Shown piece after piece: positions 9,430-54,424 of a stretch of 64,000 bases of DNA; positions within the stretch are counted from its first letter, which is position 1, and each line of letters begins with the position of its first letter. Under the pieces are notes generated by a model. That model did not search any database. It saw only the letters and a list, made by a program, of their open reading frames with translations, and had not been told where the DNA came from. Both the position numbers and the translations under genes were made by a program. Origin of the DNA: a virus; IMG/VR virus record IMGVR_UViG_3300034096_001618, positions 1 to 64,000 of that record, one strand, 5' to 3'.

Positions 9430-9663
9430 ATGAAGTGCGAAATTCCGAATTGTTCAAACGAAAGCATTAAAAAAATTTCAAAAACTGGTATTTTTTATGG
9501 TGTTTATGTAGATGAAGAAGATATTTTTGTTTGTGATAAGCACAACATAAATGAAATCAATGATTGCATTAACAAAATTTGTACTGAAAAGGCAATTGCC
9601 AATCAAGTTGTCAATCCATTTGCAGAAATTGAAAATTTTAAGAAAAAAACAAATTTTAGATAA
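9430..9663 (+). CDS. small Cys/His (zinc-binding?) protein
   Basis: CEIPNC...CDKH. Confidence 0.6.
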   Translation: MKCEIPNCSNESIKKISKTGIFYGVYVDEEDIFVCDKHNINEINDCINKICTEKAIANQVVNPFAEIENFKKKTNFR

Positions 9664-9671
9664 ATAATGCT

Positions 9672-9869
9672 ATGAAATTAAGTTTTAAAGAATTCATGTC
9701 ATCATCTTTATCCAAAGAGCAACCACAAGGGACAAGTGATTTACGTTCAGATCAATTGGGCGTAGAAATTAGCGGTGAAGATTCAAAAAATAAACCTCCA
9801 GTGAAACCAAATAATATTTCAAGATTTAATCCTGATAAGATATATGGAAAAAAGGGAAAGAAAAGATGA
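9672..9869 (+). CDS. small CTS-bearing protein
   Basis: MKLSFKEFM; TAAATA 5 nt upstream. Confidence 0.65.
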   Translation: MKLSFKEFMSSSLSKEQPQGTSDLRSDQLGVEISGEDSKNKPPVKPNNISRFNPDKIYGKKGKKR

Positions 9870-10186
9870 ACTTTCAAAGGCTTTGGGAAAACATAAAAAA
9901 TAATCATCGATATGGTGAAGAAGTTGACGATCAAGAAATTGATGATCAATCTATATCGGCAATTAAAACTGGTATAGGAATTAATGATACATTTTGGGAT
10001 GATTTTATACAATTGTTAAATAATTCAGAAGGTCTTTCTTCTTTGCTTGATATATCTATAAATGACATTACTTCTTGGCGGAAGAAAATAGAATCTGCCT
10101 TGAAAAAAGTTCAATTAGAAGATGGTGAGGTTGAAACCAAGAAAAATAAAAAGTTGATCAAAACAGGTCAAACAGATGGTGATTGA
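9866..10186 (+). CDS. hypothetical protein
   Basis: ATGA overlap with the upstream gene. Confidence 0.7.
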   Translation: MNFQRLWENIKNNHRYGEEVDDQEIDDQSISAIKTGIGINDTFWDDFIQLLNNSEGLSSLLDISINDITSWRKKIESALKKVQLEDGEVETKKNKKLIKTGQTDGD

Positions 10187-10196
10187 AAGGTGAACA

Positions 10197-10580
10197 ATGA
10201 AAAGTTTTTTGCAATATTTGAAGTTTCGTGAAAATGATGGAGAAGTGCAGAAAGTTGCTTCTCCCGGTGAAATGCCAATGGCAAAAGCTTCTGGCGATGA
10301 TGCTGAACCAATTGTTCCCGGTGATGGAAGCAATCAAAGAGTATTAGAAATGTTGAAAAATTCATTCAATAAATTCTTAGACGAGAAACTACTCAAAGCT
10401 GTAGAAAGAAAAAAAATTACCAAAGAAGACGCTTTGAGTTTACTAAATACAGAAATTTCAAGATTTTCTAACACTATTGGAATAGATGCCAATAGTGTTT
10501 CTCCTACTAATAATAATGCAATGACAACTAACTCAGAACCAATGTCGCCCGTTCCCAATCAACCCAAGGCATCAGGATAA
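10197..10580 (+). CDS. CTS-bearing hypothetical protein
   Basis: MKSFLQYLKFRE; SD aggtga. Confidence 0.7.
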   Translation: MKSFLQYLKFRENDGEVQKVASPGEMPMAKASGDDAEPIVPGDGSNQRVLEMLKNSFNKFLDEKLLKAVERKKITKEDALSLLNTEISRFSNTIGIDANSVSPTNNNAMTTNSEPMSPVPNQPKASG

Positions 10581-10582
10581 CC

Positions 10583-11683
10583 GTGAATAACAGAAAAATA
10601 ATCTCTAGCGACTTAACTAGAAAAAAAGTCCAAGAAGCTTTAAAAAATAAAAATCCAATTAACAAAAATTCATTAACAGCGCATCAGATTCATAGTGAGC
10701 GTCAAAATATAAAATCAGCCAATAGAAATGTAGTTAAAAGTAAAATCGAAAGACCTAGAGTAAATCAAGGTAATAAAAGACCATCTTCTCAATATCTTGC
10801 AAAAATAAAATCAAAAACATTAAAACTGAATTTACCTCAAAGCGGAAGTTTTAATGGATCAATATTAAACATAGGAGAAAAATTTCTTTGTGTCTACAGA
10901 CCAAATGAAAGTGAAATAATTGCTTGTTTTTTGAATTATGATTATTCAATAATACCCAAATTATATTACAAATTTAATTTACTTCTTGTTTCGGACCCAC
11001 GAATAATTATAACTCCTGACAATAAAGTGTTAATGTCTTATTCAAAATATTACACAAATAATGATTCTAATGAATATATTGATGGCAATATCATTATGGA
11101 TTTAAATGAATCCAAAAATAAAATATTTCAAGGAGAAACTATAAGGATTAGTCCTGAACATCTGAAAGATAGGCAGAAAAATTGGATGCCATTTGTCCAT
11201 GAAGATAAACTTTATTTTATTGCCAATGTGTGTCCACATCAAATTTATGAAGTGGATTGGACTGGTCAAAAAAAATCAAATTTAATTTATGAGACTTTTT
11301 GGGAAAATCCTTGGTTTGTAAAGGAAAATTTAAGAGGTAATACGAATGCGGTTATGTTGCCAGATGGTAACTATCTTGGGACATTTCACACAGTTACTAG
11401 AAAAAATATCTTACATTATTATGATAATGGTTTTTATATTTTTGAAGGCAAACCTCCATTTACAGTAACGCACATATCTAAACAAACATATTTAAGAGCA
11501 GAAGATGCCATAGAGCCTTACTTTAGAAAGGCTGGTATTATACTTTGTACATTTCCAGTGGGAATGGTTTTGGAAAAAGATAAAATAATTATAAGTTATG
11601 GCGACAATGATTCTTGCGTAAAAATACTCGAAGTATCTTTGAATGATGTTATGGATATTATGGTCAATGTGAAAGAAAAATAG
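10583..11683 (+). CDS. beta-propeller glycosidase/phosphorylase-like protein (GH130/GH43-like)
   Basis: FNGSI, DPR, QKNWMPF, LRG, FP.G and ISYGDND motifs. Confidence 0.7.
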   Translation: MNNRKIISSDLTRKKVQEALKNKNPINKNSLTAHQIHSERQNIKSANRNVVKSKIERPRVNQGNKRPSSQYLAKIKSKTLKLNLPQSGSFNGSILNIGEKFLCVYRPNESEIIACFLNYDYSIIPKLYYKFNLLLVSDPRIIITPDNKVLMSYSKYYTNNDSNEYIDGNIIMDLNESKNKIFQGETIRISPEHLKDRQKNWMPFVHEDKLYFIANVCPHQIYEVDWTGQKKSNLIYETFWENPWFVKENLRGNTNAVMLPDGNYLGTFHTVTRKNILHYYDNGFYIFEGKPPFTVTHISKQTYLRAEDAIEPYFRKAGIILCTFPVGMVLEKDKIIISYGDNDSCVKILEVSLNDVMDIMVNVKEK

Positions 11684-11768
11684 ATTCAATTTTAAAGCTA
11701 TGACCTTCCCAACTAGCACCATAAAAGACTCTTTCTGGTGAGTTTTGATCCAAGTTGACAAGGATATA

Positions 11769-12839
11769 ATGATAAATGTAAATAAACCACATCTTCCAAA
11801 TATAGAAAAATATATAGATAAAATAAAAACTATTTGGAATACAAACCATTTGACCAACTATGGTCCATTACATAAAGAACTTGAAGAAAAATTATGTAAA
11901 TACTTAGACATTAAAGACTTATGTTTAATCAACAGTTGTAGCAATGGTTTGTTAATGTGTTTAAATGAGTTTGATGCTGGTGATGAGATTATAACAACGC
12001 CATTTTCTTTTATTGCTACGACATCTTCAATCGTTTGGTCAAAATTGAAACCTGTTTTTTGCGATATAGATCCAGAATATTTGTTTATTGATATAAACAA
12101 GATAGAAAGTTTAATTACACCTAGAACAAAAGCTGTCCTAACGACTCATGTTTATGGCAATACAGGAGACTTAGAAGAACTAGAAGCAATCTGCAAAGAA
12201 AATAATATTAAATTAATTTTTGATGCAGCTCATGCATTTGGTATCAAATACAAAGAAAAATCAATATTAAAATATGGTGATATGTCTATACTTAGCTTCC
12301 ATGCTACAAAAGTTTATCACACTATTGAAGGTGGAGCAATCTATGTAAAAGATGAAACAAAAATAACAGAAATGATAACAAAAGGAAACTTTGGATATAA
12401 AAATTATCAAATAGAATTATTGGGTATAAATTCTAAAATGTCTGAATTCAATGCAGCTATGGGTTTGTGTTTATTAGATGAAATTGATGATATTATAAAT
12501 GACAGAAAAAAATCATGTGAATATTATGATAAGTTATTGTATAATTCATACAAAATAAATTACATCAGGAAGCCAACAAAAAATTTAAATATAAAAGAAA
12601 ATTATTCTTATTATCCAATTATTTTTAACAATGAAAATGATTTGTTAATTTGTGTAGAAAAATTAAATTCTAAGAATATTTTTCCAAGAAGATATTTTTA
12701 TCCTTCATTGAATACAGTTAACTATTTGCAAAATGTAGAAATGCCTATATCTGAAAGCATTTCAAAAAGAATACTTTGTTTGCCTTTATACATGGGAATA
12801 AGCAAAGCTGATATAGAAACTGTAACAGAGCAAATATAA
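11769..12839 (+). CDS. DegT/DnrJ/EryC1/StrS sugar aminotransferase (VioA-like)
   Basis: TPFSFIAT, HVYG, DAAHAFG, SFHATK (PLP lysine), EGGA, RRYFYP. Confidence 0.92.
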   Translation: MINVNKPHLPNIEKYIDKIKTIWNTNHLTNYGPLHKELEEKLCKYLDIKDLCLINSCSNGLLMCLNEFDAGDEIITTPFSFIATTSSIVWSKLKPVFCDIDPEYLFIDINKIESLITPRTKAVLTTHVYGNTGDLEELEAICKENNIKLIFDAAHAFGIKYKEKSILKYGDMSILSFHATKVYHTIEGGAIYVKDETKITEMITKGNFGYKNYQIELLGINSKMSEFNAAMGLCLLDEIDDIINDRKKSCEYYDKLLYNSYKINYIRKPTKNLNIKENYSYYPIIFNNENDLLICVEKLNSKNIFPRRYFYPSLNTVNYLQNVEMPISESISKRILCLPLYMGISKADIETVTEQI

Positions 12840-13472
12840 TTACTTTTTCATAATTGCTTTTCTGTAGTTATCAAGTTTCACTTCACAATAATCTGCAAAA
12901 ACTTCAATAAAATAATCAATAGCCATTTGAGGTCTTAATTTTTTGTCAAGATCAGGCATCCATAAATAATCATCAAAAATCAATATGCCATTCTTTTTTA
13001 ATAGATTCCAACAAAATACAGCATCCATCATTACAAATAAAGAAACATGATTTCCATCTATAAAAATAAAATCATATTTTTTCTTTTCCACAAGAAGTTT
13101 GGGAAGAACATTTGTTGATAAGTCATGATGAATTATTACCTGCTTACTTTTGCCAGACAATTCGATATTTTTATCAAAAATTTCCTTAATTTTTAGTGTG
13201 CCAAACTTCCACTGAGCATCAACAGCACCGTAGGAATTTAAACTATTCTCATTTTGAGAATAGTCAAGCCAAGGATCTATACATGTAATAGTTGAATTAA
13301 TATTGTGTAAATAATTTTCTATAAACCAAACAGTACTTCTACCTTCATAAGATCCAATTTCTAAAATATTTATTTCATTGGCTGGGTCTAAATTTATAGT
13401 TTTAATTAAATCATCTTGTGATTCGGTATCACCAAACCAATCTGCTGCAAATTGATATTTCATTTTTATCAT
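12840..13472 (-). CDS. class I SAM-dependent methyltransferase (Methyltransf_24-like)
   Basis: LEIGSYEGRS, YDFIFIDGNH, GILIFDDY. Confidence 0.88.
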   Translation of the reverse strand: MIKMKYQFAADWFGDTESQDDLIKTINLDPANEINILEIGSYEGRSTVWFIENYLHNINSTITCIDPWLDYSQNENSLNSYGAVDAQWKFGTLKIKEIFDKNIELSGKSKQVIIHHDLSTNVLPKLLVEKKKYDFIFIDGNHVSLFVMMDAVFCWNLLKKNGILIFDDYLWMPDLDKKLRPQMAIDYFIEVFADYCEVKLDNYRKAIMKK

Positions 13473-13477
13473 TTCTC

Positions 13478-14665
13478 CTAAAAGCTATTTAATATATTTA
13501 CTTTTTGTTCAAATGTTTTATTTTTCATCAAAACATTAAGATGATTTAAATCTCTGCCCAATTTATGTTTGCCGATTCCAATATTAGTTAAAGATTGTAT
13601 TCTTGCATTAGGAGATTTTTCATACCAATGAGGAGTTTCTCCTATCAATCCACATTTTAAACACTGAAATCCTATGGTTGCATGATTCTTATCAAGGGCA
13701 TAATTATTATTGCTCCTTACAAAATCTTCTGAATATTTTGTTTCATAAAGTTTTACATATTCTTTTTTATCAATTTTGCTAACAACGTATTCCACAAAAG
13801 CTTTATCATTCATCATTCCTGTGTTTACAAAACAACAATTTTTATGATCTTCATTAATTTTAAAATCTAAAGGAATATTAGATCCTCCAAAATATTGACC
13901 TTTATCGTGCATCATCCTTACCATCACATTTTTTATCATTGGTATTTCAATGACAAGTTTTTTGACTCTAAAATATTCTTGTAATCTTGTATTCAAATCT
14001 AAATCTGCATAGTGTCTTGTGTTTGTCGCAACTTCATCTATGCCGTTTACTGCAAGCCACAAATCTTTATTTATACAATAATGACCCCAACAAGAATTAT
14101 GAAAAGTATTAACACGAGTTGATTCCCAAGGCAAATCATTAAATTTTCCATCTCTATACAAAACATTAGCATCTTCAATTGAAATAGGAATTGTGCTTTT
14201 GCTATGTTCATTTGATTTAATAGGATTCATTCTTCTTGGTTCAAGACCTAAACAATCATCTTTATATAAAACTTGCCAATTAAAGCCAACAAATTTAAAA
14301 TTATCAACCATTTTTAAAATCTTGATAATTCTTGGATGACAAAATCTCCAATCCTGAAATGTAATAATTTTATTTGTAGACGACATCAAAACTGCATTAT
14401 TGAATAAACCATAATCAAATGTCTTAGGCACATTTGGATTAACTATATAAGGGAAATGGACAATATTGTACTGAAGTGTTTTGACAAATTCTGATAACCA
14501 TGCCCTTTTAGGGTAATGCGGATCTGGAATAACAACTTCAAAAGACTTATCTGTTTGATAATTCAAATTCAATAATTGTGATTTTAGTAGCTCATCATCA
14601 CCAATAAGATAAAAAGGAGCCATGACAAAACTGTAATGAGGATTACATAATTTATAATTTATCAT
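13478..14665 (-). CDS. putative GT-A (GT2-like) glycosyltransferase
   Basis: L.YQTDKSFEVVIPD, N.A....S, FQD, VNGIDE, D.DL..RL. Confidence 0.65.
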   Translation of the reverse strand: MINYKLCNPHYSFVMAPFYLIGDDELLKSQLLNLNYQTDKSFEVVIPDPHYPKRAWLSEFVKTLQYNIVHFPYIVNPNVPKTFDYGLFNNAVLMSSTNKIITFQDWRFCHPRIIKILKMVDNFKFVGFNWQVLYKDDCLGLEPRRMNPIKSNEHSKSTIPISIEDANVLYRDGKFNDLPWESTRVNTFHNSCWGHYCINKDLWLAVNGIDEVATNTRHYADLDLNTRLQEYFRVKKLVIEIPMIKNVMVRMMHDKGQYFGGSNIPLDFKINEDHKNCCFVNTGMMNDKAFVEYVVSKIDKKEYVKLYETKYSEDFVRSNNNYALDKNHATIGFQCLKCGLIGETPHWYEKSPNARIQSLTNIGIGKHKLGRDLNHLNVLMKNKTFEQKVNILNSF

Positions 14666-15234
14666 TTTATTTTCACCGATGGCGTTCCAACGTATGTGCC
14701 AGATTCTTTAATATTAGTAACAACACCAGAATTTAAACCAATTATCAAATTATCACACACTTGAATCTTTTCTTTAAAAGAAGAATTTGTTCCAATGTAA
14801 ACGCATTCTCCAATGCTATTGTTTCCAGATATTACTGATCCCGGCATCATACTTAAAAAATCTTTGCAAACAACATCATGACCAATACTGTTAAATCTAC
14901 TAATAATACTGTGTTTGCCTATTTTAACATTAGTGGTTATTATGCAATGTGGCCCTACATAAGAACCTTCTCCGATTTTTACATCATTTCCAATAATTGC
15001 TGTTGGATGAATAAATGTAAAATATTTAATGCCATTTATCTTTTCACATATTGATTTCCTTATAACTGGATCAGCTATCGCAATCATTATTTCATATTCA
15101 TCTTTTTCTATAGAAGAAATAGGACGTGCAAGATCATTTGCAAATTCATCACTTACAAAAAATGTCACATCTTCTTGCATCAAAAATGCTACTTCTCTAG
15201 CGTGACCACCATAGCCATATAATGCTTTTTTCAT
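14662..15234 (-). CDS. NeuD/PglD-like hexapeptide sugar acyltransferase
   Basis: YGYGGHAREV, IHPTA, IGHD, hexapeptide repeats, YVGTP. Confidence 0.9.
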   Translation of the reverse strand: MKKALYGYGGHAREVAFLMQEDVTFFVSDEFANDLARPISSIEKDEYEIMIAIADPVIRKSICEKINGIKYFTFIHPTAIIGNDVKIGEGSYVGPHCIITTNVKIGKHSIISRFNSIGHDVVCKDFLSMMPGSVISGNNSIGECVYIGTNSSFKEKIQVCDNLIIGLNSGVVTNIKESGTYVGTPSVKIK

Positions 15235-15239
15235 GATAT

Positions 15240-15262
15240 TATATATTAGAAATAACTAAATA
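15240..15262. promoter_or_regulatory. back-to-back late-type promoters (TATATA minus, TAAATA plus)
   Basis: Each lies exactly 5 nt from its ATG (15234 and 15268). Confidence 0.55.
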
Positions 15263-15267
15263 ACATC

Positions 15268-16038
15268 ATGTCGAAAATATTATCTCTATTCTCATTGACT
15301 CCAGAAAATGTTGGCGACATGGCGTGCAGTTGGGGCAACCAATACGAAAATTTCAAGATTTCAAATTTCGGAGAAGATCCACACAATTTGTATGGAATAA
15401 CTACAAAAAATGTAGTTTTTGGTCATATAAACGACCATAGAAGTGATTATGATCAATTTGATTTAATTGTAGTTGGAGGCGGCGGAATAATCAATAAATC
15501 ACACGAAGAAGGCATATGGCGAATAATCAATCAATCAAAAAAATGTATGATACGTTCTGTTGGTGTTAAAGACTGGGATTTTGCTCATAAGATAAGAGAC
15601 ATAATTGGTGACAATTTTACAATAAGACATGTAGTAGACGGTTTCACATATGAAGCTTGTCCTTCTTTAGTTTTTGTAGATAGATACAAAACAGTCCATG
15701 GAGTTAATAAGAAAATTAAAAAGACAGATGATATCCTTTTTGCAGTCCATCAAAATCATAAAAAAGAAATAGAAATTCTGCAAGAAAAAGGATTTAATTA
15801 TATTGTGAACAATTGTGAATTAGAATATGCCTTGCAAAAAATATCTTGCTGTAAAAAAATAGTAACATCTTCATACCATTTCTTATTATGGGCAAATGAA
15901 TTTAATTGTGATATTGAATTGTTTCAAAAAGATTCTGACAAACCTGTTTCAGAATTAGACAAAGACTCTGATATGCTGAAGTTTATAAACATTCCAATAA
16001 AATTTGAAATCATTGATATAAAAAAATATTTAAACTGA
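15268..16038 (+). CDS. polysaccharide pyruvyl transferase-like protein
   Basis: NVGD, VVGGGGI, SVG, IR, CPSL, VTSSYH. Confidence 0.7.
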   Translation: MSKILSLFSLTPENVGDMACSWGNQYENFKISNFGEDPHNLYGITTKNVVFGHINDHRSDYDQFDLIVVGGGGIINKSHEEGIWRIINQSKKCMIRSVGVKDWDFAHKIRDIIGDNFTIRHVVDGFTYEACPSLVFVDRYKTVHGVNKKIKKTDDILFAVHQNHKKEIEILQEKGFNYIVNNCELEYALQKISCCKKIVTSSYHFLLWANEFNCDIELFQKDSDKPVSELDKDSDMLKFINIPIKFEIIDIKKYLN

Positions 16039-16188
16039 AACCATGGTGTTGAGTAAATCTTGTAATTTATATTCAGCAATCTTCACTAATGAATCATTGT
16101 CTCCATGACTTATTATAATTTTATCTTTTTTATCACCATTCCAATAAGTAAAATACAAGCAATTTCATTTTGTTTTCTAAAATATCTT
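16030..16188 (-). pseudogene. frameshifted 3' fragment of a paralog of the 10583 glycosidase-like gene
   Basis: Reads RYFRK...C...GMV / KDKIIISHGDNDSLVKIAE..L.D...MV versus YFRK...C...GMVLEKDKIIISYGDNDSCVKILE. Confidence 0.8.
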
Positions 16189-16223
16189 GCCTGAAAACAA
16201 TAAATACAAGACAGGAGGCAGTG

Positions 16224-16658
16224 GTGAAAAAGAATCTCACATCAATTGAAATTCAAGATGATTTAATCAAATTGAACACATTTCTCGAAGAAACTAAACA
16301 AAAATGGGATGTAGAAAATCCACAGCCGAAATCATGGTTTGACAGAAATAAAGTTTATTTGGTTAAAACAACAACATTTCTTATTTCCTGTACTGATAAA
16401 TTAATTAATTTGGCTCAAACTTTTGCAGCAGCTGGGCCAAATAAAAAGATTGCTGTTTTAGCTATTACGGCGCAAATATTTGATTACATAGTTGCCAAAG
16501 CTTTTCCTATTTGGATTTCTCCATTTGTGCCAATGATTAAACAAATAGTCATTACGATTATCATTAGCAATCTGATTGAATTCATTGTTTCTAAATACAA
16601 AGATGGGTCATGGAATATGGAGAAAAAAAATGAGCCAACTGAACCAACAACAATCTGA
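16224..16658 (+). CDS. membrane protein, possible holin-like
   Basis: GTG start after aggagg; G..KK..V motif followed by hydrophobic helices. Confidence 0.5.
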   Translation: MKKNLTSIEIQDDLIKLNTFLEETKQKWDVENPQPKSWFDRNKVYLVKTTTFLISCTDKLINLAQTFAAAGPNKKIAVLAITAQIFDYIVAKAFPIWISPFVPMIKQIVITIIISNLIEFIVSKYKDGSWNMEKKNEPTEPTTI

Positions 16659-17592
16659 TACAATTAGTCTTTTACCTTTTGTTCGTGAAGACATTGCAAC
16701 CATTCAAGATGTGAATCAAAAATCGGGATGGGAGATAACTGCATTTGATCTTCCTAAAGCATGGCAATACACACAAGGAGAAGGTGTGATTGTTGCTGTT
16801 TTAGATACTGGTTGTGATTTAGACCATGATGATCTTAAAGAAAATCTTCTTAAAGGTAAAAATTTTGTAAATCCTTCATTGCCCCCAGAAGATGACAATT
16901 CACATGGAAGCCATTGTACTGGAACAATATGTGCTTTGAATAATAATCATGGTATTGTTGGAGTTGCTCCAAAGACTAAGGTTATACCAGTCAAAGTTCT
17001 TGATGGTTCTGGATCTGGAAATCTTGAAGTAGTTGCAGAAGGCATTAGATGGGCTGCGGATCAAGGTGTTGATTTTATAGTTATGTCATTAGGCTCTCCA
17101 ACTCCAACGCCAGTAATTCATGAAGCAGTTAAATATGCTGCTGCAAAAGGTGTGATCACTTGGTGTGCTGCTGGCAATGCAGGTAAAACACGACAAGTTT
17201 TTTATCCAGCTGCATATCCAGAATGCATTGGTATTGGTGCAATAGATCAAAATTTGAATAGAGCAAATTTTAGTTGCACTGGTCCTGATTTAGACTTTAT
17301 GGCCCCGGGAGTAAAGATACTTAGCACTGTTCCAGATAATTGGTATGCATTTCTTTCTGGGACAAGTATGAGCAATCCTTTTGCTGTTGGAGTGGCGTGT
17401 CTTTTACTTTCGCACAAAAGAAAATATAACTTGCCTATAAATCTCAGAAATGCTCAAGATTATATAGACATGCTTAGAAACTATACCATTCCAACTAATG
17501 ATCCTAAATTCGCTGGTGAAAGGTTTTTAGAGGGATTTGGAATTATCGATCCACGCAAAGTCAATGAGTGGTTATCTCAACAAAATTCTTAA
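16630..17592 (+). CDS. subtilisin-like serine protease (S8), no signal/propeptide
   Basis: VLDTG, HGSHCTG, AAGN, SGTSMS; start ATG 16630 with SD ggag. Confidence 0.93.
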   Translation: MSQLNQQQSDTISLLPFVREDIATIQDVNQKSGWEITAFDLPKAWQYTQGEGVIVAVLDTGCDLDHDDLKENLLKGKNFVNPSLPPEDDNSHGSHCTGTICALNNNHGIVGVAPKTKVIPVKVLDGSGSGNLEVVAEGIRWAADQGVDFIVMSLGSPTPTPVIHEAVKYAAAKGVITWCAAGNAGKTRQVFYPAAYPECIGIGAIDQNLNRANFSCTGPDLDFMAPGVKILSTVPDNWYAFLSGTSMSNPFAVGVACLLLSHKRKYNLPINLRNAQDYIDMLRNYTIPTNDPKFAGERFLEGFGIIDPRKVNEWLSQQNS

Positions 17593-20535: not shown

Positions 20536-21453
20536 ATGAATTTTACATTTGGCAGCGATCCTGAATTCATGATTTCTCGTTGGGACGAATTGCAAAGTGC
20601 TATTCCCTTGCTTCCTAAAAAAGAACAAGCACTTATTAGAAATGGCAGTAAATTTTATTACGACAATGTTCTTGCTGAAATTGCTGTTAAGCCAGCATCT
20701 TCAAAAGAAGATCTTCAGAAAAATATAGAAAACTCTTTGCAACAACTTTGTAAATTAATTAAGCCAGCAAGATTCATTATTCAAGCTTCTGCCAAATATC
20801 CATCTAAGCAACTAAATGATAAAGATGCTAAAATTGCTGGATGTAATCCAGAATGGAACGCTTATACTTTGCGTTGTGTATTGCCACCTGAAGAAATAAT
20901 TTCAAAAACCCCTTTCCGAACAGCAGGTGGACATATTCATATAGGTGCAGAAGGTCTCAACGACCCAATTAAAGCATTTGATGTCATTAGAATGATGGAT
21001 CTTTTTATAGGCATACCTTCTATATTCTTGGATACTGACGAAACATCAAAAGAACGAAGAAAAATATATGGTCATGCTGGAAGCCATCGGATGACTGATT
21101 ATGGTTTTGAATATCGTTCGTTGGGTAATTTTTGGTATGGATCTCCAGAATATGTTTCGTTAATCTATGATCTTACGAATTTCGTTCTTGAATTCGTCTC
21201 TGCCGACAACCACAAGAAGTTTTGGACAATCAATGAAAAGCTTCTACAAAGTAGTGATCCGAGCCGTGCTTACAATTGCATTGGATATGATGCTAAATCA
21301 CTTTGCAAGACGATTGATTCTTGCGACAAGAAACAAGCTTCCAAATTCATGATGTTCATTACAAATTATTTACCTAAAAACCTAGTAGAAAAGATTGAGC
21401 AACTATCTGACAAACCTTTGCCAGATCCATATGATGCTTGGAACCTTGCATGA
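20536..21453 (+). CDS. phiEco32-like COOH-NH2 ligase type 2
   Basis: GSDPEF, DNVLAE, GCNPE.NAY, RTAGGHIHIG, RR..YG.AG, YGFEYR.L.NFW. Confidence 0.9.
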   Translation: MNFTFGSDPEFMISRWDELQSAIPLLPKKEQALIRNGSKFYYDNVLAEIAVKPASSKEDLQKNIENSLQQLCKLIKPARFIIQASAKYPSKQLNDKDAKIAGCNPEWNAYTLRCVLPPEEIISKTPFRTAGGHIHIGAEGLNDPIKAFDVIRMMDLFIGIPSIFLDTDETSKERRKIYGHAGSHRMTDYGFEYRSLGNFWYGSPEYVSLIYDLTNFVLEFVSADNHKKFWTINEKLLQSSDPSRAYNCIGYDAKSLCKTIDSCDKKQASKFMMFITNYLPKNLVEKIEQLSDKPLPDPYDAWNLA

Positions 21454-22082
21454 TGTTTGACTATAATTGTATAATAAGTCATTCTAAATTGACTAAAGAT
21501 AAGCCAACACATGCAGTGATTTTATTAGCTGGCAGAGGATTTTCTAACAAATATATGTTTGACATTTTCAATAGTCTTCATGATATTTGTAATGTCATCA
21601 TATTTTCAATAGAACCAGAAAATGAATGGTATCCAATTCCAAACGGCTTTTCTGATCAAGAAAACGCCGTTGTTGGGTTGAAACAAAATATCCCAATTTT
21701 GCGTGAATATGTCAAAAATCTACTCGATGAAAATAAGATAGAATTAAATAATACTATTTTAGTGGGATTTTCAGCAGGTGCAGTTGTGGCGCTAGAATTA
21801 GCAACACGATTTCAAGATAATTATAATCTTGTTGTATGTCACAGCGGAGCGATTCTTTGTCCTGATAAATTAACAAAATGCACGATATCAACAAATATTT
21901 TATTGTTTCATAACGAAGATGATGTTTGCTTTAGTTGGAATGAAAGGTATTTACCAATGCGTGATGCGTTGATTGCCAATAAATACAATGTCATTACCGA
22001 AGAAAAATCATTAGGTGGACATTTGATGTGCAAAAATGAAATTGATCTTGTGGTTAAAATTATTCACCAAGTTGTCGCCTGA
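21450..22082 (+). CDS. alpha/beta hydrolase (phospholipase/carboxylesterase-like)
   Basis: GFSAG nucleophile elbow, D and GH triad motifs; ATGA overlap. Confidence 0.85.
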   Translation: MMFDYNCIISHSKLTKDKPTHAVILLAGRGFSNKYMFDIFNSLHDICNVIIFSIEPENEWYPIPNGFSDQENAVVGLKQNIPILREYVKNLLDENKIELNNTILVGFSAGAVVALELATRFQDNYNLVVCHSGAILCPDKLTKCTISTNILLFHNEDDVCFSWNERYLPMRDALIANKYNVITEEKSLGGHLMCKNEIDLVVKIIHQVVA

Positions 22083-22764
22083 TTCTGCGGCAATCTTCTC
22101 GTATGTCAATTTTTCTACAATTGCGACACATCCATAAAAAACCATGTTCACGAAACGCATTGACTTCTAAAATAAGTCTTGTTCTATTAATTGAATAACG
22201 ACAATTACACTTTTTGCATATTGTTTTTATAATCCCCTTTATTTTTTTAGGCTTAGGAACTTTACCTTTAACTTTATGAACTTTCCTAGAAAATTTGTTT
22301 TTAAAATAGAATGTTTTTAATTCTTCTGGCATTGGAGGGATTGGAAATTGACTGCCTTTAATCCATTGATATTTAGTTCCATCTAGATGCGTACTTGGCG
22401 GAACAACAGATTGATGCAAATTACCACGAAATTCAATTCCATCAAAAACGAATCTCGTTAATTCTGGATCAGGGCTTAGGAAAAGATTATGAATTGATTT
22501 TGCACTACGAAACATTGGTCTGGGAAATCCATCAATCATTCTTTCCAATAAATCATTGGCCTGTTCAGAATCTCCTTCAACATCAACAATCTCACCCAGA
22601 AGTATTCCCATGTTGTATTCTTCTGTTAAAAAACAAGACCTCCATCTTTCCACGCTCCAATCTTTATTCCAATTACTGGATATTGGACACTTACTGTTTA
22701 AGTGTACAGCTATGGGCTTGAAACCAATTTTTACATACCCATCGAAATATTGAATTAGTTTCAT
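22060..22764 (-). CDS. bifunctional DNA primase/polymerase (Prim-Pol) domain with C-terminal Zn ribbon
   Basis: K.P, NMGILLG, VDVE, H..F, EFRG, VVPPSTH..G..Y.W; CKKC/CRNC. Confidence 0.82.
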   Translation of the reverse strand: MKLIQYFDGYVKIGFKPIAVHLNSKCPISSNWNKDWSVERWRSCFLTEEYNMGILLGEIVDVEGDSEQANDLLERMIDGFPRPMFRSAKSIHNLFLSPDPELTRFVFDGIEFRGNLHQSVVPPSTHLDGTKYQWIKGSQFPIPPMPEELKTFYFKNKFSRKVHKVKGKVPKPKKIKGIIKTICKKCNCRYSINRTRLILEVNAFREHGFLWMCRNCRKIDIREDCRRIRRQLGE

Positions 22765-22906: not shown

Positions 22907-23812
22907 ATGAAGACTGTAGCATTAGTCACCGGAGGAACAGGTTTTATTGGATATCACTTATGTAAATGGCTATACGAAAACGATTATCATGTCATAGCAA
23001 CTGGAATTAATGGAGAAAATAAACCTTTATGTCATGATTTACATTTGTTGCCATTGAATCAACTGCCATTTGACAAAATGCCTAATGTTGATATATGTTT
23101 TCATCAAGCTGCAAACAATGATACAACTGAAAGCAACTATGAAAAAATGTATGAAACAAATGTCATACATTCATCTACACTATTTCGTAAACTTTCGCAA
23201 GAAAATAATTGTAAGAATTTTGTCTATGCTTCTAGCTGTTCAATCTATGGAGACAGACCAATTCCTTTCAATGAAATTGAAACTGAGCCAAAGCCATTAA
23301 ATCCATATGCAGTTTCAAAGTTAGAGTTTGAAAATTTCGCAAAAGATTTCGCAGCACTAAACGGAGTAAAAACAATTGGCCTGCGATACACAAATGTTTA
23401 TGGTCCTTTTGAAGTTCATAAAGGCAAAAGAGCCAGCATGATAAGTCAGTTATTATTTCAAATCGAACAAGGAGAAAATCCTATTCTTTTCAAGAATGGC
23501 GAACAAATGCGTGATTGGATTTATGTTGCAGATGTAGTAAGAGCAAATGTTCTTGCGAGTAAGGCCAATACACAAGGCATATACAATGTTGGCTACAGCA
23601 TACCATATTCATTTAATTCATTGGTCAGAATGATATGTGAAAAGTTAAACAAAAAAGTTGAAATTCAGTATGTTGATTGTCCATTCTTGGACAAATATCA
23701 GTCTCATACTTCCGTAGACATATCTAGGTCCAGAATAGATTTAGGATTTATGCCTAGATGGTCAATAAGAGAAGTATTGCCAGAAATGATTCAACAAAAA
23801 AACCGCTCCTAG
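22907..23812 (+). CDS. NAD-dependent epimerase/dehydratase (extended SDR, RfaD-like)
   Basis: TGGTGFIG, ASSC..YG, YAVSK, LRY.NVYGP, RDWIYV.D. Confidence 0.92.
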   Translation: MKTVALVTGGTGFIGYHLCKWLYENDYHVIATGINGENKPLCHDLHLLPLNQLPFDKMPNVDICFHQAANNDTTESNYEKMYETNVIHSSTLFRKLSQENNCKNFVYASSCSIYGDRPIPFNEIETEPKPLNPYAVSKLEFENFAKDFAALNGVKTIGLRYTNVYGPFEVHKGKRASMISQLLFQIEQGENPILFKNGEQMRDWIYVADVVRANVLASKANTQGIYNVGYSIPYSFNSLVRMICEKLNKKVEIQYVDCPFLDKYQSHTSVDISRSRIDLGFMPRWSIREVLPEMIQQKNRS

Positions 23813-23852: not shown

Positions 23853-25217
23853 TTATGATTCACTTCTTAATGCCTGATAGAGATTATTGGTATCAATCGT
23901 CTTGAACAATGATTCACAACCAGTACTGTATTTTGAAGCTGGGTCTCCTTCTCCGATCATGCTGTTGACGCTCTTCCACCAAGACGATTCTTCCTTGGTG
24001 ACTTTTTCATTTTCGCCATGATGTTTCTTTTTAGATTTTAAATTTCTAAGTTTTTCAAAGTCGTGATGTGTAATCTTGCCATCTGGTTTGCTTTCTGGCC
24101 CCGATACATCTAACTTTTTCTGCCCACCTTTTAACATTTTCTTCATAGAACCCATAGAACTCTTAACAGCATCTTCGCCGTCTTCTTTACCACAGCCCAT
24201 TTTCTTTTTGCCATGTTTCATATACTTCATGCCTTCGTCGTCTTCTTTACCACAGCCCATTTTCTTTTTGCCATGTTTCATATACTTCATGCCTTCGTCG
24301 TCTTCTTTACCACAGCCCATTTTCTTTTTGCCATGTTTCATATACTTCATGTTTTTTTTGCTATGTTTGACAGATTCTGTTTTATTGTGACCCATTTCTT
24401 CATCATCATGTCTAGAATGCATATCACTCATGTCATCACTCATGTCATCACTCATGTCATCGCTCATGTCATCGCTCATGTCATCACCCATGTCTTCATC
24501 TTCATCTTCATGGCGACGATGGCGCATATCACCCATGTCTTCATCTTCATCTTCATGGCGACGATGGCGACGATGGCGCATATCACCCATGTCTTCGTCA
24601 TCATCTTCGTCATCATCTTCGTCATCATGGTGCATATCGCCCATTTCTTCGTCTTCGTCTTCGTCTTCGTCATCATCTTCGTCATCATGGTGCATATCAC
24701 CCATTTCATCGTCATCATGATCCATGTCGCTCATTTCATCGTCATCATGATCCATGTCATCATGATCCATGTCATCATGATCCATGTCATCATGATCCAT
24801 GTCGCTCATTTCATCGTCATCATGATCATCTCTAGGAAGATCTTCATCTTCAAAGAATCTGAAGGTATTTTCGTTTTTAAGTTCTTCGTTCTTACACATT
24901 TTGCATTTTGATTTTTTCTTTTTAGAACTTGTACTATGCATAGCGCCACATTCGGGGCAAACAGACATCTTTATTTTTTTGCCTTTGTGTTTTTTATGGC
25001 CAACTTTAATTGATGGCATGTCTTTTATTTCTGCTGGCTCAACAAGGCTTGCGTCACCATACATTTTCTTGACTTTTTTCTTCATTGACTTTCCAACTTT
25101 GGCTTCCTCGAAGCCAAATTGTGATTGTATGCCAAGATTAGAAGGTTTTCCAAAACCAAGGTTAAAACTTGGAAGCACCGATTCGTTGACCATCTTCCAC
25201 TGTTTGTATGACAGCAT
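23853..25217 (-). CDS. CTS-bearing, intrinsically disordered D/H/M-rich internal (core/scaffold-like) protein
   Basis: MLSYKQWKMVNES; DMDHD repeats; KKLD...DGKI...DFEKLR motif. Confidence 0.75.
   Translation of the reverse strand: MLSYKQWKMVNESVLPSFNLGFGKPSNLGIQSQFGFEEAKVGKSMKKKVKKMYGDASLVEPAEIKDMPSIKVGHKKHKGKKIKMSVCPECGAMHSTSSKKKKSKCKMCKNEELKNENTFRFFEDEDLPRDDHDDDEMSDMDHDDMDHDDMDHDDMDHDDDEMSDMDHDDDEMGDMHHDDEDDDEDEDEDEEMGDMHHDDEDDDEDDDEDMGDMRHRRHRRHEDEDEDMGDMRHRRHEDEDEDMGDDMSDDMSDDMSDDMSDDMSDMHSRHDDEEMGHNKTESVKHSKKNMKYMKHGKKKMGCGKEDDEGMKYMKHGKKKMGCGKEDDEGMKYMKHGKKKMGCGKEDGEDAVKSSMGSMKKMLKGGQKKLDVSGPESKPDGKITHHDFEKLRNLKSKKKHHGENEKVTKEESSWWKSVNSMIGEGDPASKYSTGCESLFKTIDTNNLYQALRSES
24181..24351 (-). 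repeat. 60-bp perfect coding tandem repeat (about 2.85 copies)
   Basis: Encodes MKYMKHGKKKMGCGKEDDEG. Confidence 0.95.
24420..24830 (-). repeat. nested low-complexity coding repeats (12-bp DDMS, 15-bp DDMDH units)
   Basis: ctcatgtcatca and catgatccatgtcat arrays. Confidence 0.9.
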
Positions 25218-26344: not shown

Positions 26345-26521
26345 TTACAACGGATGTTGAAAGCGTGTTTTTGATATTTTACTCTTTCTTTTATGAACGG
26401 ATTTAATCAATTCAGCCAATTCCATTTGACTATTGCTTAAAGACCGTTGTTTAAATACAATATCATTAGGTGATTTTGAGTCACCATTGCAACCACAGCC
26501 TTTTTTTTGTTCTGGTTCCAT
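26345..26521 (-). CDS. small CGC-motif protein (58 aa, below the ORF-track cutoff)
   Basis: MEPEQKKGCGCNGDSK...FQHPL; TAAATA 4 nt upstream of ATG. Confidence 0.6.
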   Translation of the reverse strand: MEPEQKKGCGCNGDSKSPNDIVFKQRSLSNSQMELAELIKSVHKRKSKISKTRFQHPL

Positions 26522-26549
26522 ACTCTATTTATACTGCTGGGTCATAATT

Positions 26550-28055
26550 ATGAACAAAGAAGAAGAAGTAAAACAGCTTATAAAGCAAGCCTATGAAAAG
26601 GCTTATGAAAAATTTCAAGAAAAAAAATATGAAATTGTTTGTGTTATAGCGGAGCAAATTTTAAAAGTAAGTCCCAATGAATGGCAGGCCATGCAAATTC
26701 TTGGTTTGTCTTATAGTGCGTTAAATCGTTTCGATGATTCTATCATCATATTGAAAAGATGTTTAGAATTAAATTCTGACAATGCAGAAACACTTAATGA
26801 TTTGGCTTTGGCTTATTCTGGTAAATATGATTATGATAATTCTATAAAATATTTAGAAAAAGCGATTGATGTGAAGCCAGACATGGCAGTTTTTCACAGC
26901 AACCTTGGTCTTCAATATCGGCACAAGAAAAATAATGACAAGGCAATAGAATCTTTTAAAAAATCTATTTCCTTGTCAGAAAAACCTGAAACATTGGCTA
27001 TGCTTGGCGGATGTTATGGTGAAAAAAAACAACTTGACGAAGCTGAGAAATATATTTTAAAAGCATTAGAGTTAAATCCTAACTTTGCTGCTGCTCATGT
27101 TGATTTGTCCTCTATTCTTAAATTGCAAGGAAAATGGAAAGAAGGCTTCTCTGAATATGAATGGCGATCTGATGTTTATGATCAATTGCAAATATGGAAA
27201 AAGATATACAATCCTGCTAAAAAATGGCGTGGAGAAGACATTAGCGGCAAAAGAATTGTCATCCATACTGAACAAGGGCATGGTGATGCAATTCAATTTA
27301 TTAGGTATTTAAAACCATTAAAAAATAAAGGCGCATATATCATATTGCATTGCGCTGAATCTCTCAAATCAATATTTTTTAATCTTGCTGATGAATTTTA
27401 TACAACTGAACCAAATACTGTTGCAAATTGGGATGTAGGAAACAACATACCAGAACATGACTATCATTGTTCTGTTATGAGTTTACCTAATATATTACAG
27501 TCAATTTTTACATATTATTCATATATTAAAGTTGATCGAAATTTTGATTTAAGCAATTATAAAAACAATAAAAAAATTGGAATTGTTTGGGCAGGTAATC
27601 CACAACATCCCAATGACAGAGAAAGATCTTGTAGATTAGAATTATTTAGAAAAATATCTAAAATAGACGGCGTTAAGCTTTTTAGTTTAATGAAAGACAC
27701 TCGACCCAGAGCGTATAAAGACAATGGTATATCTGTTGATTTAACAATAGGATCAGAAGATATAAAAGTTGTTGATCTTTGCGAATACATCAATGACTTC
27801 GAGGACACTGCCTCTATAATAAATTCTTTAGACTTAATAATTAGCGTTGATTCATCCGTAATTCATTTGGCAGGGGCCATGGGGAAACCTTGTTTTGGTT
27901 TGATTTCATGGAATCCTGATTGGAGATGGGAAGTAGAAGGCGATTGCACAGTTTGGTATCCAAGCGTTTCATTGGTTAGGCAAAAAGAACGTGGAAATTG
28001 GGATTCTGTTTTTGAAGAAGTTGAAATTTTAGTTGAAAAGTTTTTCAATGAATGA
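26550..28055 (+). CDS. TPR-repeat glycosyltransferase (GT9-like C-terminus)
   Basis: TPRs; EYEWR, EQGHGDAIQF, IGIVWAG, DFEDTA, VDSSVIHLAGAMG, DWRW, WYPS. Confidence 0.9.
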   Translation: MNKEEEVKQLIKQAYEKAYEKFQEKKYEIVCVIAEQILKVSPNEWQAMQILGLSYSALNRFDDSIIILKRCLELNSDNAETLNDLALAYSGKYDYDNSIKYLEKAIDVKPDMAVFHSNLGLQYRHKKNNDKAIESFKKSISLSEKPETLAMLGGCYGEKKQLDEAEKYILKALELNPNFAAAHVDLSSILKLQGKWKEGFSEYEWRSDVYDQLQIWKKIYNPAKKWRGEDISGKRIVIHTEQGHGDAIQFIRYLKPLKNKGAYIILHCAESLKSIFFNLADEFYTTEPNTVANWDVGNNIPEHDYHCSVMSLPNILQSIFTYYSYIKVDRNFDLSNYKNNKKIGIVWAGNPQHPNDRERSCRLELFRKISKIDGVKLFSLMKDTRPRAYKDNGISVDLTIGSEDIKVVDLCEYINDFEDTASIINSLDLIISVDSSVIHLAGAMGKPCFGLISWNPDWRWEVEGDCTVWYPSVSLVRQKERGNWDSVFEEVEILVEKFFNE

Positions 28056-35604: not shown

Positions 35605-35792
35605 TCATGAAAAAGAAATATTTCAATAAAAATTGGCCAAACACTTGGTGTCACAGTAGATCATTTTCTTTTGATGCTAATTTATCTTCTGCTATATTAG
35701 TTCGATACTCAGGAAACTTTAAGTGGGATGATGTCAGGAGCAGTGATTGGAGTATGTTGTGGTCTAGCTCAGAATGTTGGCAGAGTCATTAA
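35589..35792 (+). CDS. small W/S-rich ORF
   Basis: ORF track; W/S-rich C-terminus. Confidence 0.35.
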   Translation: MLFQIIMKKKYFNKNWPNTWCHSRSFSFDANLSSAILVRYSGNFKWDDVRSSDWSMLWSSSECWQSH

Positions 35793-53310: not shown

Positions 53311-53502
53311 ATGGAAATATTACAAATTTTCGGTGCATTAATTGATAAGCCAGATGTTCCTAGGTTCTATCGTGAACTACAACATTACTATCAAAAAAAC
53401 AATATGTTGCACGAAGCATCATCAGTTAGTTTTTTAATAGAGAATAAATTTGGTAAAAATAATGAAAACCCCATTGACAATTCAACTTATAGTGAAGAAT
53501 AA
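53311..53502 (+). CDS. small hypothetical protein
   Basis: TATAAT 5 nt upstream of ATG. Confidence 0.6.
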   Translation: MEILQIFGALIDKPDVPRFYRELQHYYQKNNMLHEASSVSFLIENKFGKNNENPIDNSTYSEE

Positions 53503-54424
53503 CGAAGAAACAATTGATTTTTTTCTAGAATCAATTGCCCCATTGGGATGTAATATAATTGCAGCAGATCTTGGTTGCAAAGATGGAACTATTAAAAAAT
53601 TAGAAAATAAGAATGCGACCATAATAAAAACATTAAATTACGAAGATATGTCTAAGGTTAGGAATAAATTAATTCTTGAAATAAATTCTGAATGGATTTT
53701 GCATCTTGAGCCATATGAAACACTGATTTCTGATTCAAAAATAATTAAAGAAGCTATAAAGGGACCACCATCTTCGTTTAATTTTGGCGTATTACAAGGT
53801 GATATGCTTACCAGACAAACACGATTGTGGCATAAGTCTCTTAATTTATCTTATGTAAATCCAATATATGAAACAATTGAAAGAAAATCAAATTTTATGA
53901 ATTTTTTCATAAATGTCAATAAATTTCAACCTCAAGTTGATGTTAAATCAATAGCAAAAAATTGGCATGATAAAAATCCATTACTTGCAGATGCAACGTA
54001 TTATGTTGCCTGTAATGAGCTTATATCTAAAAATTGGGATGCCTTTATAAATTTTGCTGATCTTTATTTACATCAACAGAAAAAGCAAACAATGTCTTAT
54101 TTTATGATTCAATATTACATGGCTATGGTTCAATGTTATATAAAGAAAAATTATCAAATTGCGCTGCAAAGAATTAGCATGTGTGTTTTAAAAAATCCAA
54201 CTTTAGCTGAATTTTGGTGTTTGTTGGGTGATATTTTTTATGCAATAAAGCAATATGATAAATCATATTGCTTTTATGAAAACGCCAAAATCATAGGATC
54301 TAGAAGATTACAAGAATGTGATTGGCCTATGGAGATTTCAAAATATCATGATTATCCAACTAAAATGATGGAATCATGCAGAAAAATTTTAAATAATACC
54401 CAGACTTATTTAAGCAATCAATAA
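53462..54424 (+). CDS. GT2-like glycosyltransferase with TPRs, DxD degenerate
   Basis: IVKN.E..I...L.S, D.G..DGT, RN; LEPYE in place of LDADE; TPR C-terminus. Confidence 0.72.
   Translation: MKTPLTIQLIVKNNEETIDFFLESIAPLGCNIIAADLGCKDGTIKKLENKNATIIKTLNYEDMSKVRNKLILEINSEWILHLEPYETLISDSKIIKEAIKGPPSSFNFGVLQGDMLTRQTRLWHKSLNLSYVNPIYETIERKSNFMNFFINVNKFQPQVDVKSIAKNWHDKNPLLADATYYVACNELISKNWDAFINFADLYLHQQKKQTMSYFMIQYYMAMVQCYIKKNYQIALQRISMCVLKNPTLAEFWCLLGDIFYAIKQYDKSYCFYENAKIIGSRRLQECDWPMEISKYHDYPTKMMESCRKILNNTQTYLSNQ

Follow-up and report, generated by a model that had tools for sequence, protein, structure and literature searches.

The analysis described here concerned a cassette of sugar-modifying genes carried by a phage and located in the first 64 kb of the 78,476-bp IMG/VR virus record IMGVR_UViG_3300034096_001618 (this whole 64,000-nt stretch is hereafter called the window). 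Six intact enzyme genes were found at positions 10583-16038 of the open reading frame (ORF) map, where the cassette is organized in three transcription units. The plus-strand unit starts with small ORFs at 9672, 9866 and 10197 and continues with the genes of a GH130-like beta-propeller protein (366 aa, 10583-11683) and of a DegT-family, pyridoxal phosphate (PLP)-dependent sugar aminotransferase (356 aa, 11769-12839). The genes from 9672 to 12839 are closely packed or overlapping, and such tight spacing makes it likely that they form one operon, whose head would lie at the TAAATA motif at 9661-9666 (plus strand), which ends 5 nt upstream of the ATG (9672) of a 65-aa ORF. The minus-strand unit, which converges with the former without any gap, encodes a left-handed beta-helix N-acetyltransferase of the NeuD/PglD/VioB type (190 aa, 15234-14662), a 395-aa protein with a Cys-rich C-terminal domain, described below as a GT2-like glycosyltransferase (GT) of the GT-A fold (14665-13478), and a class I S-adenosylmethionine-dependent methyltransferase (210 aa, 13472-12840); the stop of the acetyltransferase gene and the start of the GT-A gene overlap by 4 nt. 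The stops of the DegT and methyltransferase genes fall on adjacent bases (12839/12840), which leaves no room for a terminator between the converging units. Finally, the gene of a compact, pyruvyltransferase-like protein of 256 aa (15268-16038, plus strand) diverges from the acetyltransferase gene across 33 bp. This intergenic region contains TATATA (15240-15245, minus strand) and TAAATA (15257-15262, plus strand), each ending 5 nt before its own ATG, and no Shine-Dalgarno sequence was found at either of these two genes (15234 and 15268). An earlier note on this DNA had listed five of these genes and the back-to-back TANATA motifs at 15240-15262; all five are present and intact at those coordinates, the motifs do stand 5 nt before both ATGs, and the GH130-like gene is a further member that had been missed.

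Four of the six products were assigned to families by Pfam and NCBIfam: the aminotransferase to DegT (PF01041, 4.4e-83), the methyltransferase to Methyltransf_24 (PF13578, 6.4e-19) with a resemblance to O-methyltransferase family 3 (PF01596, 1.6e-6), the acetyltransferase to the NeuD/PglD/VioB type (TIGR03570, Hexapep and PglD_N), and the beta-propeller protein to GH130 (PF04041, 1.2e-12). The families initially proposed for the aminotransferase, the methyltransferase and the hexapeptide acetyltransferase were thus recovered, and that of the GT-A protein by its predicted fold. The 395-aa and 256-aa proteins gave nothing at threshold in Pfam, NCBIfam or PHROGs. No membrane segment was predicted in any of the six cassette products, nor in the other GTs of the window.

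The DegT protein matches profile positions 6-359 of the 360 of PF01041 (279.9 bits, cutoff 19.8), and its translation contains SFHATK, a motif of the S-x-H/Y-x-x-K type in which the PLP-binding lysine of this family sits. Its closest solved relative is DesI (2po3; 3.6e-39, 138.3 bits), followed by guanosine diphosphate-perosamine synthases, and its top solved matches of known chemistry are all 4-aminotransferases acting on 4-keto-6-deoxyhexoses. It is accordingly predicted to be a 4-aminotransferase on a nucleoside diphosphate (NDP)-4-keto-6-deoxyhexose, with scores that stay below cutoff for its best NCBIfam models, the equivalogs DesI (226 bits for 650), WecE (179 for 375) and PseC (176 for 423). 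The acetyltransferase scores above cutoff for PglD_N (26.5 vs 23.4 bits) and Hexapep (41.8 vs 27 bits) and just under cutoff for the NeuD/PglB/VioB model TIGR03570 (1.5e-42, 145.5 bits, cutoff 160.8); its closest solved relative is VioB (7txp; 6.1e-24, 88.1 bits), and the runners-up are 4m9c and then PglD-type enzymes (3e-16 to 7e-16). Because DesI and VioB are the closest solved relatives, both enzymes point to a predicted NDP-4-acetamido-4,6-dideoxyhexose of the viosamine type, in line with the 4-amino-6-deoxy sugar suggested by the earlier note, DesI being a maker of deoxythymidine diphosphate (dTDP)-viosamine.

The 395-aa protein has 56 close homologues, all metagenomic and none annotated, some of them on contigs of 127-522 kb. 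An AlphaFold2 model built from 28 sequences reached a predicted local distance difference test (pLDDT) score of 92.1 and a predicted template modelling score of 0.91. Foldseek matched this model to CgT (5hea; 7.9e-10) and then to heparosan synthase, TarS, TarP and SpsA, and VIA-align superposed it on the Listeria dTDP-rhamnose transferase RmlT (Z 17.2, root-mean-square deviation 2.8 Å over 201 residues), WrtF and SpsA (both Z 16.3) and TarS (Z 16.1), TarP being matched as well. As modelled, the protein is thus a GT2-like enzyme with the GT-A fold. Acidic residues D48, D84, D105, D210-E211, D221 and D223 are invariant in the family and recall, by eye, the 'G-x-D-E ... D-x-D-L' pattern of GT2 enzymes; they would correspond to the nucleotide-, metal- and acceptor-binding positions of such enzymes. 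In the C-terminal region of about 120 residues, C277, C335 and C338 are invariant and C278 almost so, which suggests a metal site. Since RmlT and SpsA, its best structural matches, were solved with dTDP ligands, the model gives a hint of a dTDP donor.

Beyond the close family, a HMMER profile search of 1.84 billion cluster representatives returned 74 relatives of the GT-A protein, 8 of them below 1e-30, and distant relatives carry GT2 (P0136) and Glyco_transf_7C (P0088) assignments. The Pfam GT2 models gave no match to the GT-A protein itself, its Atlas neighbours are viral GT2-like clusters, and a pattern and tblastn scan of 185,579 prokaryote species genomes (GTDB) found none that encodes it. 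As judged by these searches, its family forms a branch of GT2-like enzymes that is confined to viruses and carries no annotation. When the PDB was searched by sequence, single and profile-based queries with this protein and with the 256-aa protein returned only chance matches (complement receptor, PARP14, coronavirus spike). One distant metagenomic relative (P0120, 559 aa) carries a fused C-terminal class I methyltransferase domain, and such a 'Rosetta-stone' fusion links the glycosyl transfer and methylation steps.

The remaining three proteins would act as tailoring enzymes. The 256-aa protein has ten homologues and scores 15.8 bits against PF04230 (PS_pyruv_trans), under the cutoff of 25.3; nine of the eleven family members match PF04230 weakly (best 3.2e-5), one homologue carries a precomputed assignment to it, and all of the 30 Atlas neighbours are PS_pyruv_trans clusters (score 0.95). 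Its model (pLDDT 81.8) shows a compact GT-B-like fold, close to the yeast pyruvyltransferase Pvg1p according to Foldseek (probability 0.99) and, according to VIA-align, tied between Pvg1p (Z 10.0) and other GT-B-like enzymes. Profile and fold together make it a probable divergent polysaccharide pyruvyltransferase. A bona fide pyruvyltransferase of 350 aa (Pfam 3.6e-17; nearest NCBIfam model CsaB) adjoins the GT-A gene in four relatives. The methyltransferase gene adjoins that of the GT-A protein in six of eight loci, and its product is predicted to be a sugar O-methyltransferase. The GH130-like protein matches PF04041 over residues 129-360 (47.8 bits, cutoff 26), behind a basic N-terminal extension of about 100 aa, and is a candidate for a beta-mannoside phosphorylase or transferase step.

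The cassette was clearly maintained across related phages. The GT-A protein is encoded on seven related IMG/VR contigs (L002-L008, 46-91% identity), among which is one of 436 kb, and gene-by-gene comparison showed it ringed by sugar genes in every related locus, in shuffled sets. Pyruvyltransferase-like, GT-A, methyltransferase and DegT genes are present in L002, without the acetyltransferase; L003 and L004 have the GH130-like gene (in two copies in L004), a sulfotransferase, the GT-A gene, the methyltransferase (not in L004) and DegT; L008 has GH130-like, acetyltransferase, GT-A, methyltransferase, DegT and pyruvyltransferase genes. Common to L005, L006 and L007 are the GT-A protein, a true pyruvyltransferase and a protein of 875 aa whose C-terminus is GH130-like. 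In L005 and L007, the acetyltransferase, the methyltransferase, two GT2 genes and a single 209-aa protein derived from DegT come in addition; L006 shows no methyltransferase match and carries the DegT-derived protein twice. The GH130-like homologues of L003, L004 and L008 stand beside the cassette. Cassette proteins are 46-93% identical across phages, and the ratio of nonsynonymous to synonymous substitution rates (dN/dS) lies in the range 0.06-0.36 for each gene when the window is compared with L002-L004 (0.13-0.15 for DegT), so all six cassette genes are under purifying selection. The synonymous rate dS relative to L003 and L004 is uneven, about 0.34 for DegT and the methyltransferase, 0.73-0.80 for the GT-A gene and 1.4 for GH130, and therefore indicates module exchange inside the cassette. 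In L002-L004, a terminase large-subunit-like gene (weak Terminase_6N/6C matches) is found at a distance of two genes from the cassette and is the only structural neighbour recognised; when the flanking genes of the relatives were annotated with PHROGs, only a peptidase and unknowns came out.

Several details of these loci are worth recording. In L005 (11820-12449), L007 (11836-12465) and L006 (11241-11870 and 13961-14596), the full-length DegT is replaced by a conserved, shortened derivative of 209-211 aa, which keeps DegT profile positions ~24-98 and, in L006, also ~163-247. Positions 470-560 of L002 keep the 33-bp divergent promoter-like region of window positions 15200-15300 directly before the GT-A gene, and the acetyltransferase gene is absent there; this corresponds, therefore, to a clean gain or loss of the acetyltransferase. 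In the region of L006 (G002:C1:43377-44165), the pyruvyltransferase gene adjoining the GT-A gene has one in-frame TGA, which may reflect a broken gene, an error of sequencing or recoding of the stop. The peptidase of L005-L007 (phrog_4191), located about 5 kb upstream of the cassette, is unrelated to the subtilase of the window mentioned below.

The phage itself is probably very large. CheckV estimated the completeness of the record at 18%, which implies a whole genome of about 430 kb, and the phage has a T4-like contractile-tail module composed of tail sheath, sheath stabiliser, baseplate hub and head-tail adaptor genes. Near-verbatim cassette DNA is present in 19 lake-water metagenome runs from 2020 to 2024, therefore indicating a recurrent freshwater virus. 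Nothing resembling it was found among deposited phage genomes, whether by DNA or by protein, and the lineage is known from metagenomes only. No tRNA gene was found in the window.

The promoter-like motif also recurred in several of these cassettes. In the window, TA[N]ATA stands 4-5 nt before the start in 8 of 88 crude gene calls, against about 0.5 expected per offset if it occurred at its intergenic rate of 0.0056 per nt per strand, and in at most two genes at any other offset. In the related loci, the box occurs at exactly 5 nt before eight cassette gene heads in L002, L003, L004 and L008, including the GT-A start in L002, where the acetyltransferase is absent. T4-type late promoters have a TATAAATA-like box at -10 and a start site about six bases after the box, their late timing depending on gp55/gp33-type factors. 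By analogy, the spacing between box and ATG would give leaderless mRNAs, and 'late' is a label taken solely from the likeness between this motif and the late box of T4. Nine window genes have TA[ATG]ATA 3-5 nt before the ATG and no Shine-Dalgarno sequence, with starts at 1369 (minus), 1399, 4743 (minus), 9672, 15234 (minus), 15268, 31541, 57173 and 63367 (minus), and may represent a class of leaderless transcripts. In the genes of sheath, stabiliser and hub, a Shine-Dalgarno sequence is present and no box stands within 70 nt. Metatranscriptome X20, the only one in which this phage is represented, contains contigs of 151-254 nt, at a depth of 2-4, on DegT, GT-A and other genes; they carry no strand, start or timing information and could be DNA carry-over. 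At 24645-24688, a low-complexity stretch in a 454-aa gene, hundreds of unrelated metatranscriptome contigs pile up to a word depth of 160-850, which is a mapping artefact and not expression.

Taken as a working hypothesis, whose probability we put just short of even, the cassette would be a working soluble enzyme set that builds and transfers a decorated amino-deoxy sugar in the infected cell, the acceptor being a cytoplasmic protein, probably a component of the particle. Building on the enzyme families, the conservation, the purifying selection and the promoter-like motif observed above, we infer the substrate, the order of the steps, their timing and the acceptor. The host would supply an NDP-4-keto-6-deoxyhexose, most likely the dTDP-4-keto-6-deoxy-D-glucose of the rhamnose pathway. 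Indeed, no sugar-1-phosphate nucleotidyltransferase (PF00483) was found in the record or in four relatives, which include a 95%-complete genome of 436 kb, and from the missing nucleotidyltransferase and dehydratase the keto-sugar precursor is probably taken from the host. The DegT enzyme would aminate C4 and the VioB-like enzyme would N-acetylate the amine. The VioNAc-type product, an NDP-4-acetamido-4,6-dideoxyhexose, would then be moved to the acceptor by the translationally coupled GT-A enzyme, and tailoring or extension of the glycan would fall to the three other proteins (methyltransferase, pyruvyltransferase-like and GH130-like).

Concerning the destination of this glycan, models of phosphoglycosyl transferases (PF02397, PF00953) and Wzx-type flippases (PF01943) had no match in the record and the same four relatives, and the model of Wzy/WaaL/PglL-type enzymes (PF04932) had there one 16.7-bit, sub-cutoff match only. 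As no lipid-carrier or export genes were found, the phage alone could not assemble and export a lipid-linked glycan, which mildly favours cytoplasmic protein glycosylation. Protein glycosylation in the cytoplasm is preferred, and ranked by a narrow margin above a remodelling of the host surface, because the GT-A protein is virus-restricted, the enzymes are all soluble, a terminase-like gene is near in three relatives and a protein combining tetratricopeptide (TPR) repeats with a GT9 domain is encoded in the window. By analogy with other viruses, the virion is a plausible acceptor. The fuller proposal, according to which freshwater megaphages (~430-520 kb) coat their particles with a methylated, pyruvylated VioNAc-type glycan by means of a phage-only GT family and leaderless T4-late-like promoters, as a bacterial-virus counterpart of the Mimivirus fibril glycan reached by convergence or exchange, is more doubtful, and we regard it as a possibility on the unlikely side.

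Several observations weigh against the working hypothesis as a whole. Glycan, acceptor and timing are all predicted from genes, and the equivalog models being all sub-cutoff, the carrier nucleotide and the C4 stereochemistry are not fixed by the sequence. A 4,6-dehydratase was not found in the 78-kb record, which is about 18% of the genome. The GT-A protein has a single Asp (D105, in F-Q-D-W-R) at the expected DxD position, and the pyruvyltransferase assignment of the 256-aa protein lies under the Pfam cutoff; an hhalign comparison of its family with the 350-aa pyruvyltransferases of the relatives was not significant, only the D..IGGGG motif being aligned. A scan of the window for Ser/Thr/Pro-rich sequence found no mucin-like array, and short linkers of this composition occur in a 973-aa protein and at the C-terminus of a 127-aa ORF just upstream of the cassette. 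The cassette is 20-30 kb away from the recognised tail genes of the window. Lastly, soluble GT2 enzymes also use undecaprenyl-linked host intermediates, so that the missing membrane parts are compatible with a host-surface target.

That target is the strongest competing explanation, which we hold to be a serious contender with a probability well under one half. The enzymes would put the modified sugar and its decorations into host undecaprenyl-linked units of O-antigen, capsule, S-layer glycan or teichoic acid, and the cell surface, altered during a long infection, would block superinfection or keep the progeny off debris. GT-rich clusters in jumbo cyanophages have been read in this way (PMC7824862). 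In line with it, the closest structural matches of the GT-A protein (RmlT, TarS, TarP and WrtF) act on wall teichoic acid or polysaccharide, the pyruvyltransferase of the relatives is nearest to CsaB, a cell-wall polymer enzyme, and a mosaic, fast-swapping cassette, as revealed by the uneven dS, suits diversifying surface antigens. However, neither an initiating transferase nor a flippase, polymerase or ligase was found in the 95%-complete relative, and no membrane enzyme of the Gtr or Oac type, the usual phage tool for seroconversion, was detected. Moreover, the GT-A family was found in none of the 185,579 prokaryote genomes scanned, which would be surprising if the enzyme recognised an intermediate of host glycans.

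Glycosylation of a host protein (such as flagellin, pilin or an S-layer protein), or the making of a glycosylated small molecule, for takeover or competition, seems improbable. Islands for the glycosylation of flagellin and pilin typically contain DegT, PglD-like and methyltransferase genes as a set, the solved relatives of the acetyltransferase include PglD and an acetyltransferase of pilin glycosylation, and separate TPR-GT9 and HldD-like genes in the window suggest protein-directed heptosylation. Nevertheless, no specific link to a host protein and no enzyme of the Maf or oligosaccharyltransferase type was found, and the several tailoring steps, together with the two extra GT2 genes of relatives, argue for an oligosaccharide over a single-sugar tag.

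Hypermodification of the phage DNA by glycans, with the GT-A enzyme and its Cys-rich domain acting on modified bases, is very improbable in our view. Attachment of diverse glycans to DNA by phage GTs is indeed on record (Pyle et al., 2024, as cited in PMC12619734), a Dam-type methylase gene lies 1.2 kb upstream of the cassette, and the C-terminal domain of the GT-A protein has a CxxC motif; yet pyruvyl, sulfo and methyl tailoring and a GH130-like step represent polysaccharide-type chemistry. The sole thymidylate-synthase-family gene near the cassette of the relatives, considered as a lead toward DNA glycosylation, passes the equivalog cutoffs of true thymidylate synthases and is hence no hydroxymethylase; the lead was rejected, the gene being a canonical ThyA. 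As for a recently captured, decaying fragment of a bacterial O-antigen locus, which the earlier note had named as the refuting case and which could be invoked because every enzyme type is bacterial in origin and the guanine-cytosine content, 27-42% in the window, dips to its minimum (0.27-0.30) over the cassette, it can be discarded as next to impossible in view of genes all intact and under purifying selection, a cassette kept across related huge phages, a phage-type promoter motif conserved with it, a nearest bacterial DegT only 37% identical (in a search limited by its peptide patterns) and a GT-A gene not found in bacterial genomes.

Returning to particle glycosylation, one of the closest known systems, by enzyme type, is that of Mimivirus. 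Its 12-gene cluster R132-L143 includes the aminotransferase L136, the acetyltransferase-GT fusion L142, the methyltransferase R132, the pyruvyltransferase L143 and GT2-type GTs (PMC10117803), and it glycosylates proteins directly in the cytoplasm (PMC10117803). The likeness to the Mimivirus fibril activity set put forward in the earlier note is thus borne out, both viruses encoding a PLP 4-aminotransferase (predicted in the phage), an N-acetyltransferase, a class I methyltransferase, a pyruvyltransferase (a probable one in the phage) and GT2-type GTs, all soluble. The two activities fused in L142 are encoded here by two genes in the same order with a 4-nt overlap, and the predicted type of product is alike, a methylated Vio4NAc-like sugar in a pyruvylated glycan, as deduced here from the genes. 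By contrast, Mimivirus has a 4,6-dehydratase (R141), the equivalent of which was not found in the 78-kb record, and the present cassette differs by its bacterial host, the tailed phage that carries it, the new GT family and the extra GH130-like gene. The resemblance is therefore one of enzyme type, not of shown descent.

Other systems share parts of this logic. Mycobacteriophages glycosylate their capsids directly in the cytoplasm, according to work cited in PMC12619734, and the O-glycosylation of actinobacteriophage virions, as cited there (Freeman et al., 2023), likewise relies on soluble phage GTs and methyltransferases in the cytoplasm. For comparison, the cassette has a terminase-like gene nearby in three relatives, and the host here is a different one, a freshwater bacterium. 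The actinobacteriophage systems reportedly comprise GTs without an amino-sugar synthesis arm, their targets being the C-terminal tails of capsid and tail-tube subunits. The clusters of jumbo cyanophages (Iyer et al., 2021, PMC7824862) are also variable and combine, in phages of very large size, paralogous GTs with enzymes that modify sugars, and they are sporadic and polymorphic between relatives; they include sugar kinases and nucleotidyltransferases and were read as a means of host-surface modification, whereas the present cassette has no sugar-activation enzymes and is centred on a virus-restricted GT-A. The 'moraphage' paper (PMC12619734) deals with another lineage, of at most 307 kb, in which GTs are core genes with a target left unresolved there. 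Bacterial VioA/VioB and DesI share the two-step logic, C4 amination followed by N-acetylation, at a distant level of similarity, with equivalogs under cutoff.

The new elements are the unannotated GT-A family and the conserved promoter arrangement of leaderless type. The former is a structurally confident family, with an unusual Cys-rich domain and without database annotation, and the latter, placed for leaderless mRNAs, offers a testable gene-expression feature of the lineage. Access to a rare 4-acetamido-4,6-dideoxy sugar is a further prospect, the cassette being a compact and probably tractable way to make it. Should the virion prove to be the acceptor, megaphages from the environment would be added to the giant viruses and mycobacteriophages as makers of their own particle glycans, which would matter in lakes for adsorption, grazing, immune-like recognition and the stability of particles; if the host surface is the target, very large lytic phages would re-dress their hosts without membrane machinery of their own.

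Other sugar genes of the window had been put forward as support for the cassette. The families proposed for the short-chain dehydrogenase/reductase (SDR) at 22907, the TPR-GT9 protein at 26433 and the GT8 at 35764 were found as described, and the supposed GT2-TPR protein (53450-54424) has no GT2 domain by Pfam or NCBIfam, only weak GNAT and TPR matches. The SDR (22907-23812), the only one in the window, is nearest to ADP-glycero-manno-heptose 6-epimerase (TIGR02197; 5.7e-62, 209.7 bits, cutoff 275). As a candidate for the missing 4,6-dehydratase it was rejected, with 93 bits for dTDP-glucose 4,6-dehydratase vs 210 for the ADP-heptose epimerase; being HldD-like, it goes with TPR-GT9 rather than feeding DegT, and does not lend the support expected of it. 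About 2.6 kb downstream of it, a 540-aa protein (26433-28055) combines N-terminal TPR repeats and a C-terminal GT9 domain of the heptosyltransferase type, and the two genes are possibly a separate module for protein-directed heptosylation. Between the cassette and this heptose module, a phiEco32-like COOH-NH2 ligase, an alpha/beta hydrolase and a PrimPol-domain protein are encoded at 20536-22764. Directly downstream of the cassette, positions 16170-17592 encode a 162-aa membrane protein and an S8 subtilase (PF00082, 8.8e-51). In the 436-kb relative (G001), four NAD-dependent epimerase/dehydratase genes and a GT2 cluster occupy 16-32 kb, far from the cassette, and are either another island of sugar genes or flanking host DNA, the IMG/VR record being labelled 'provirus'.

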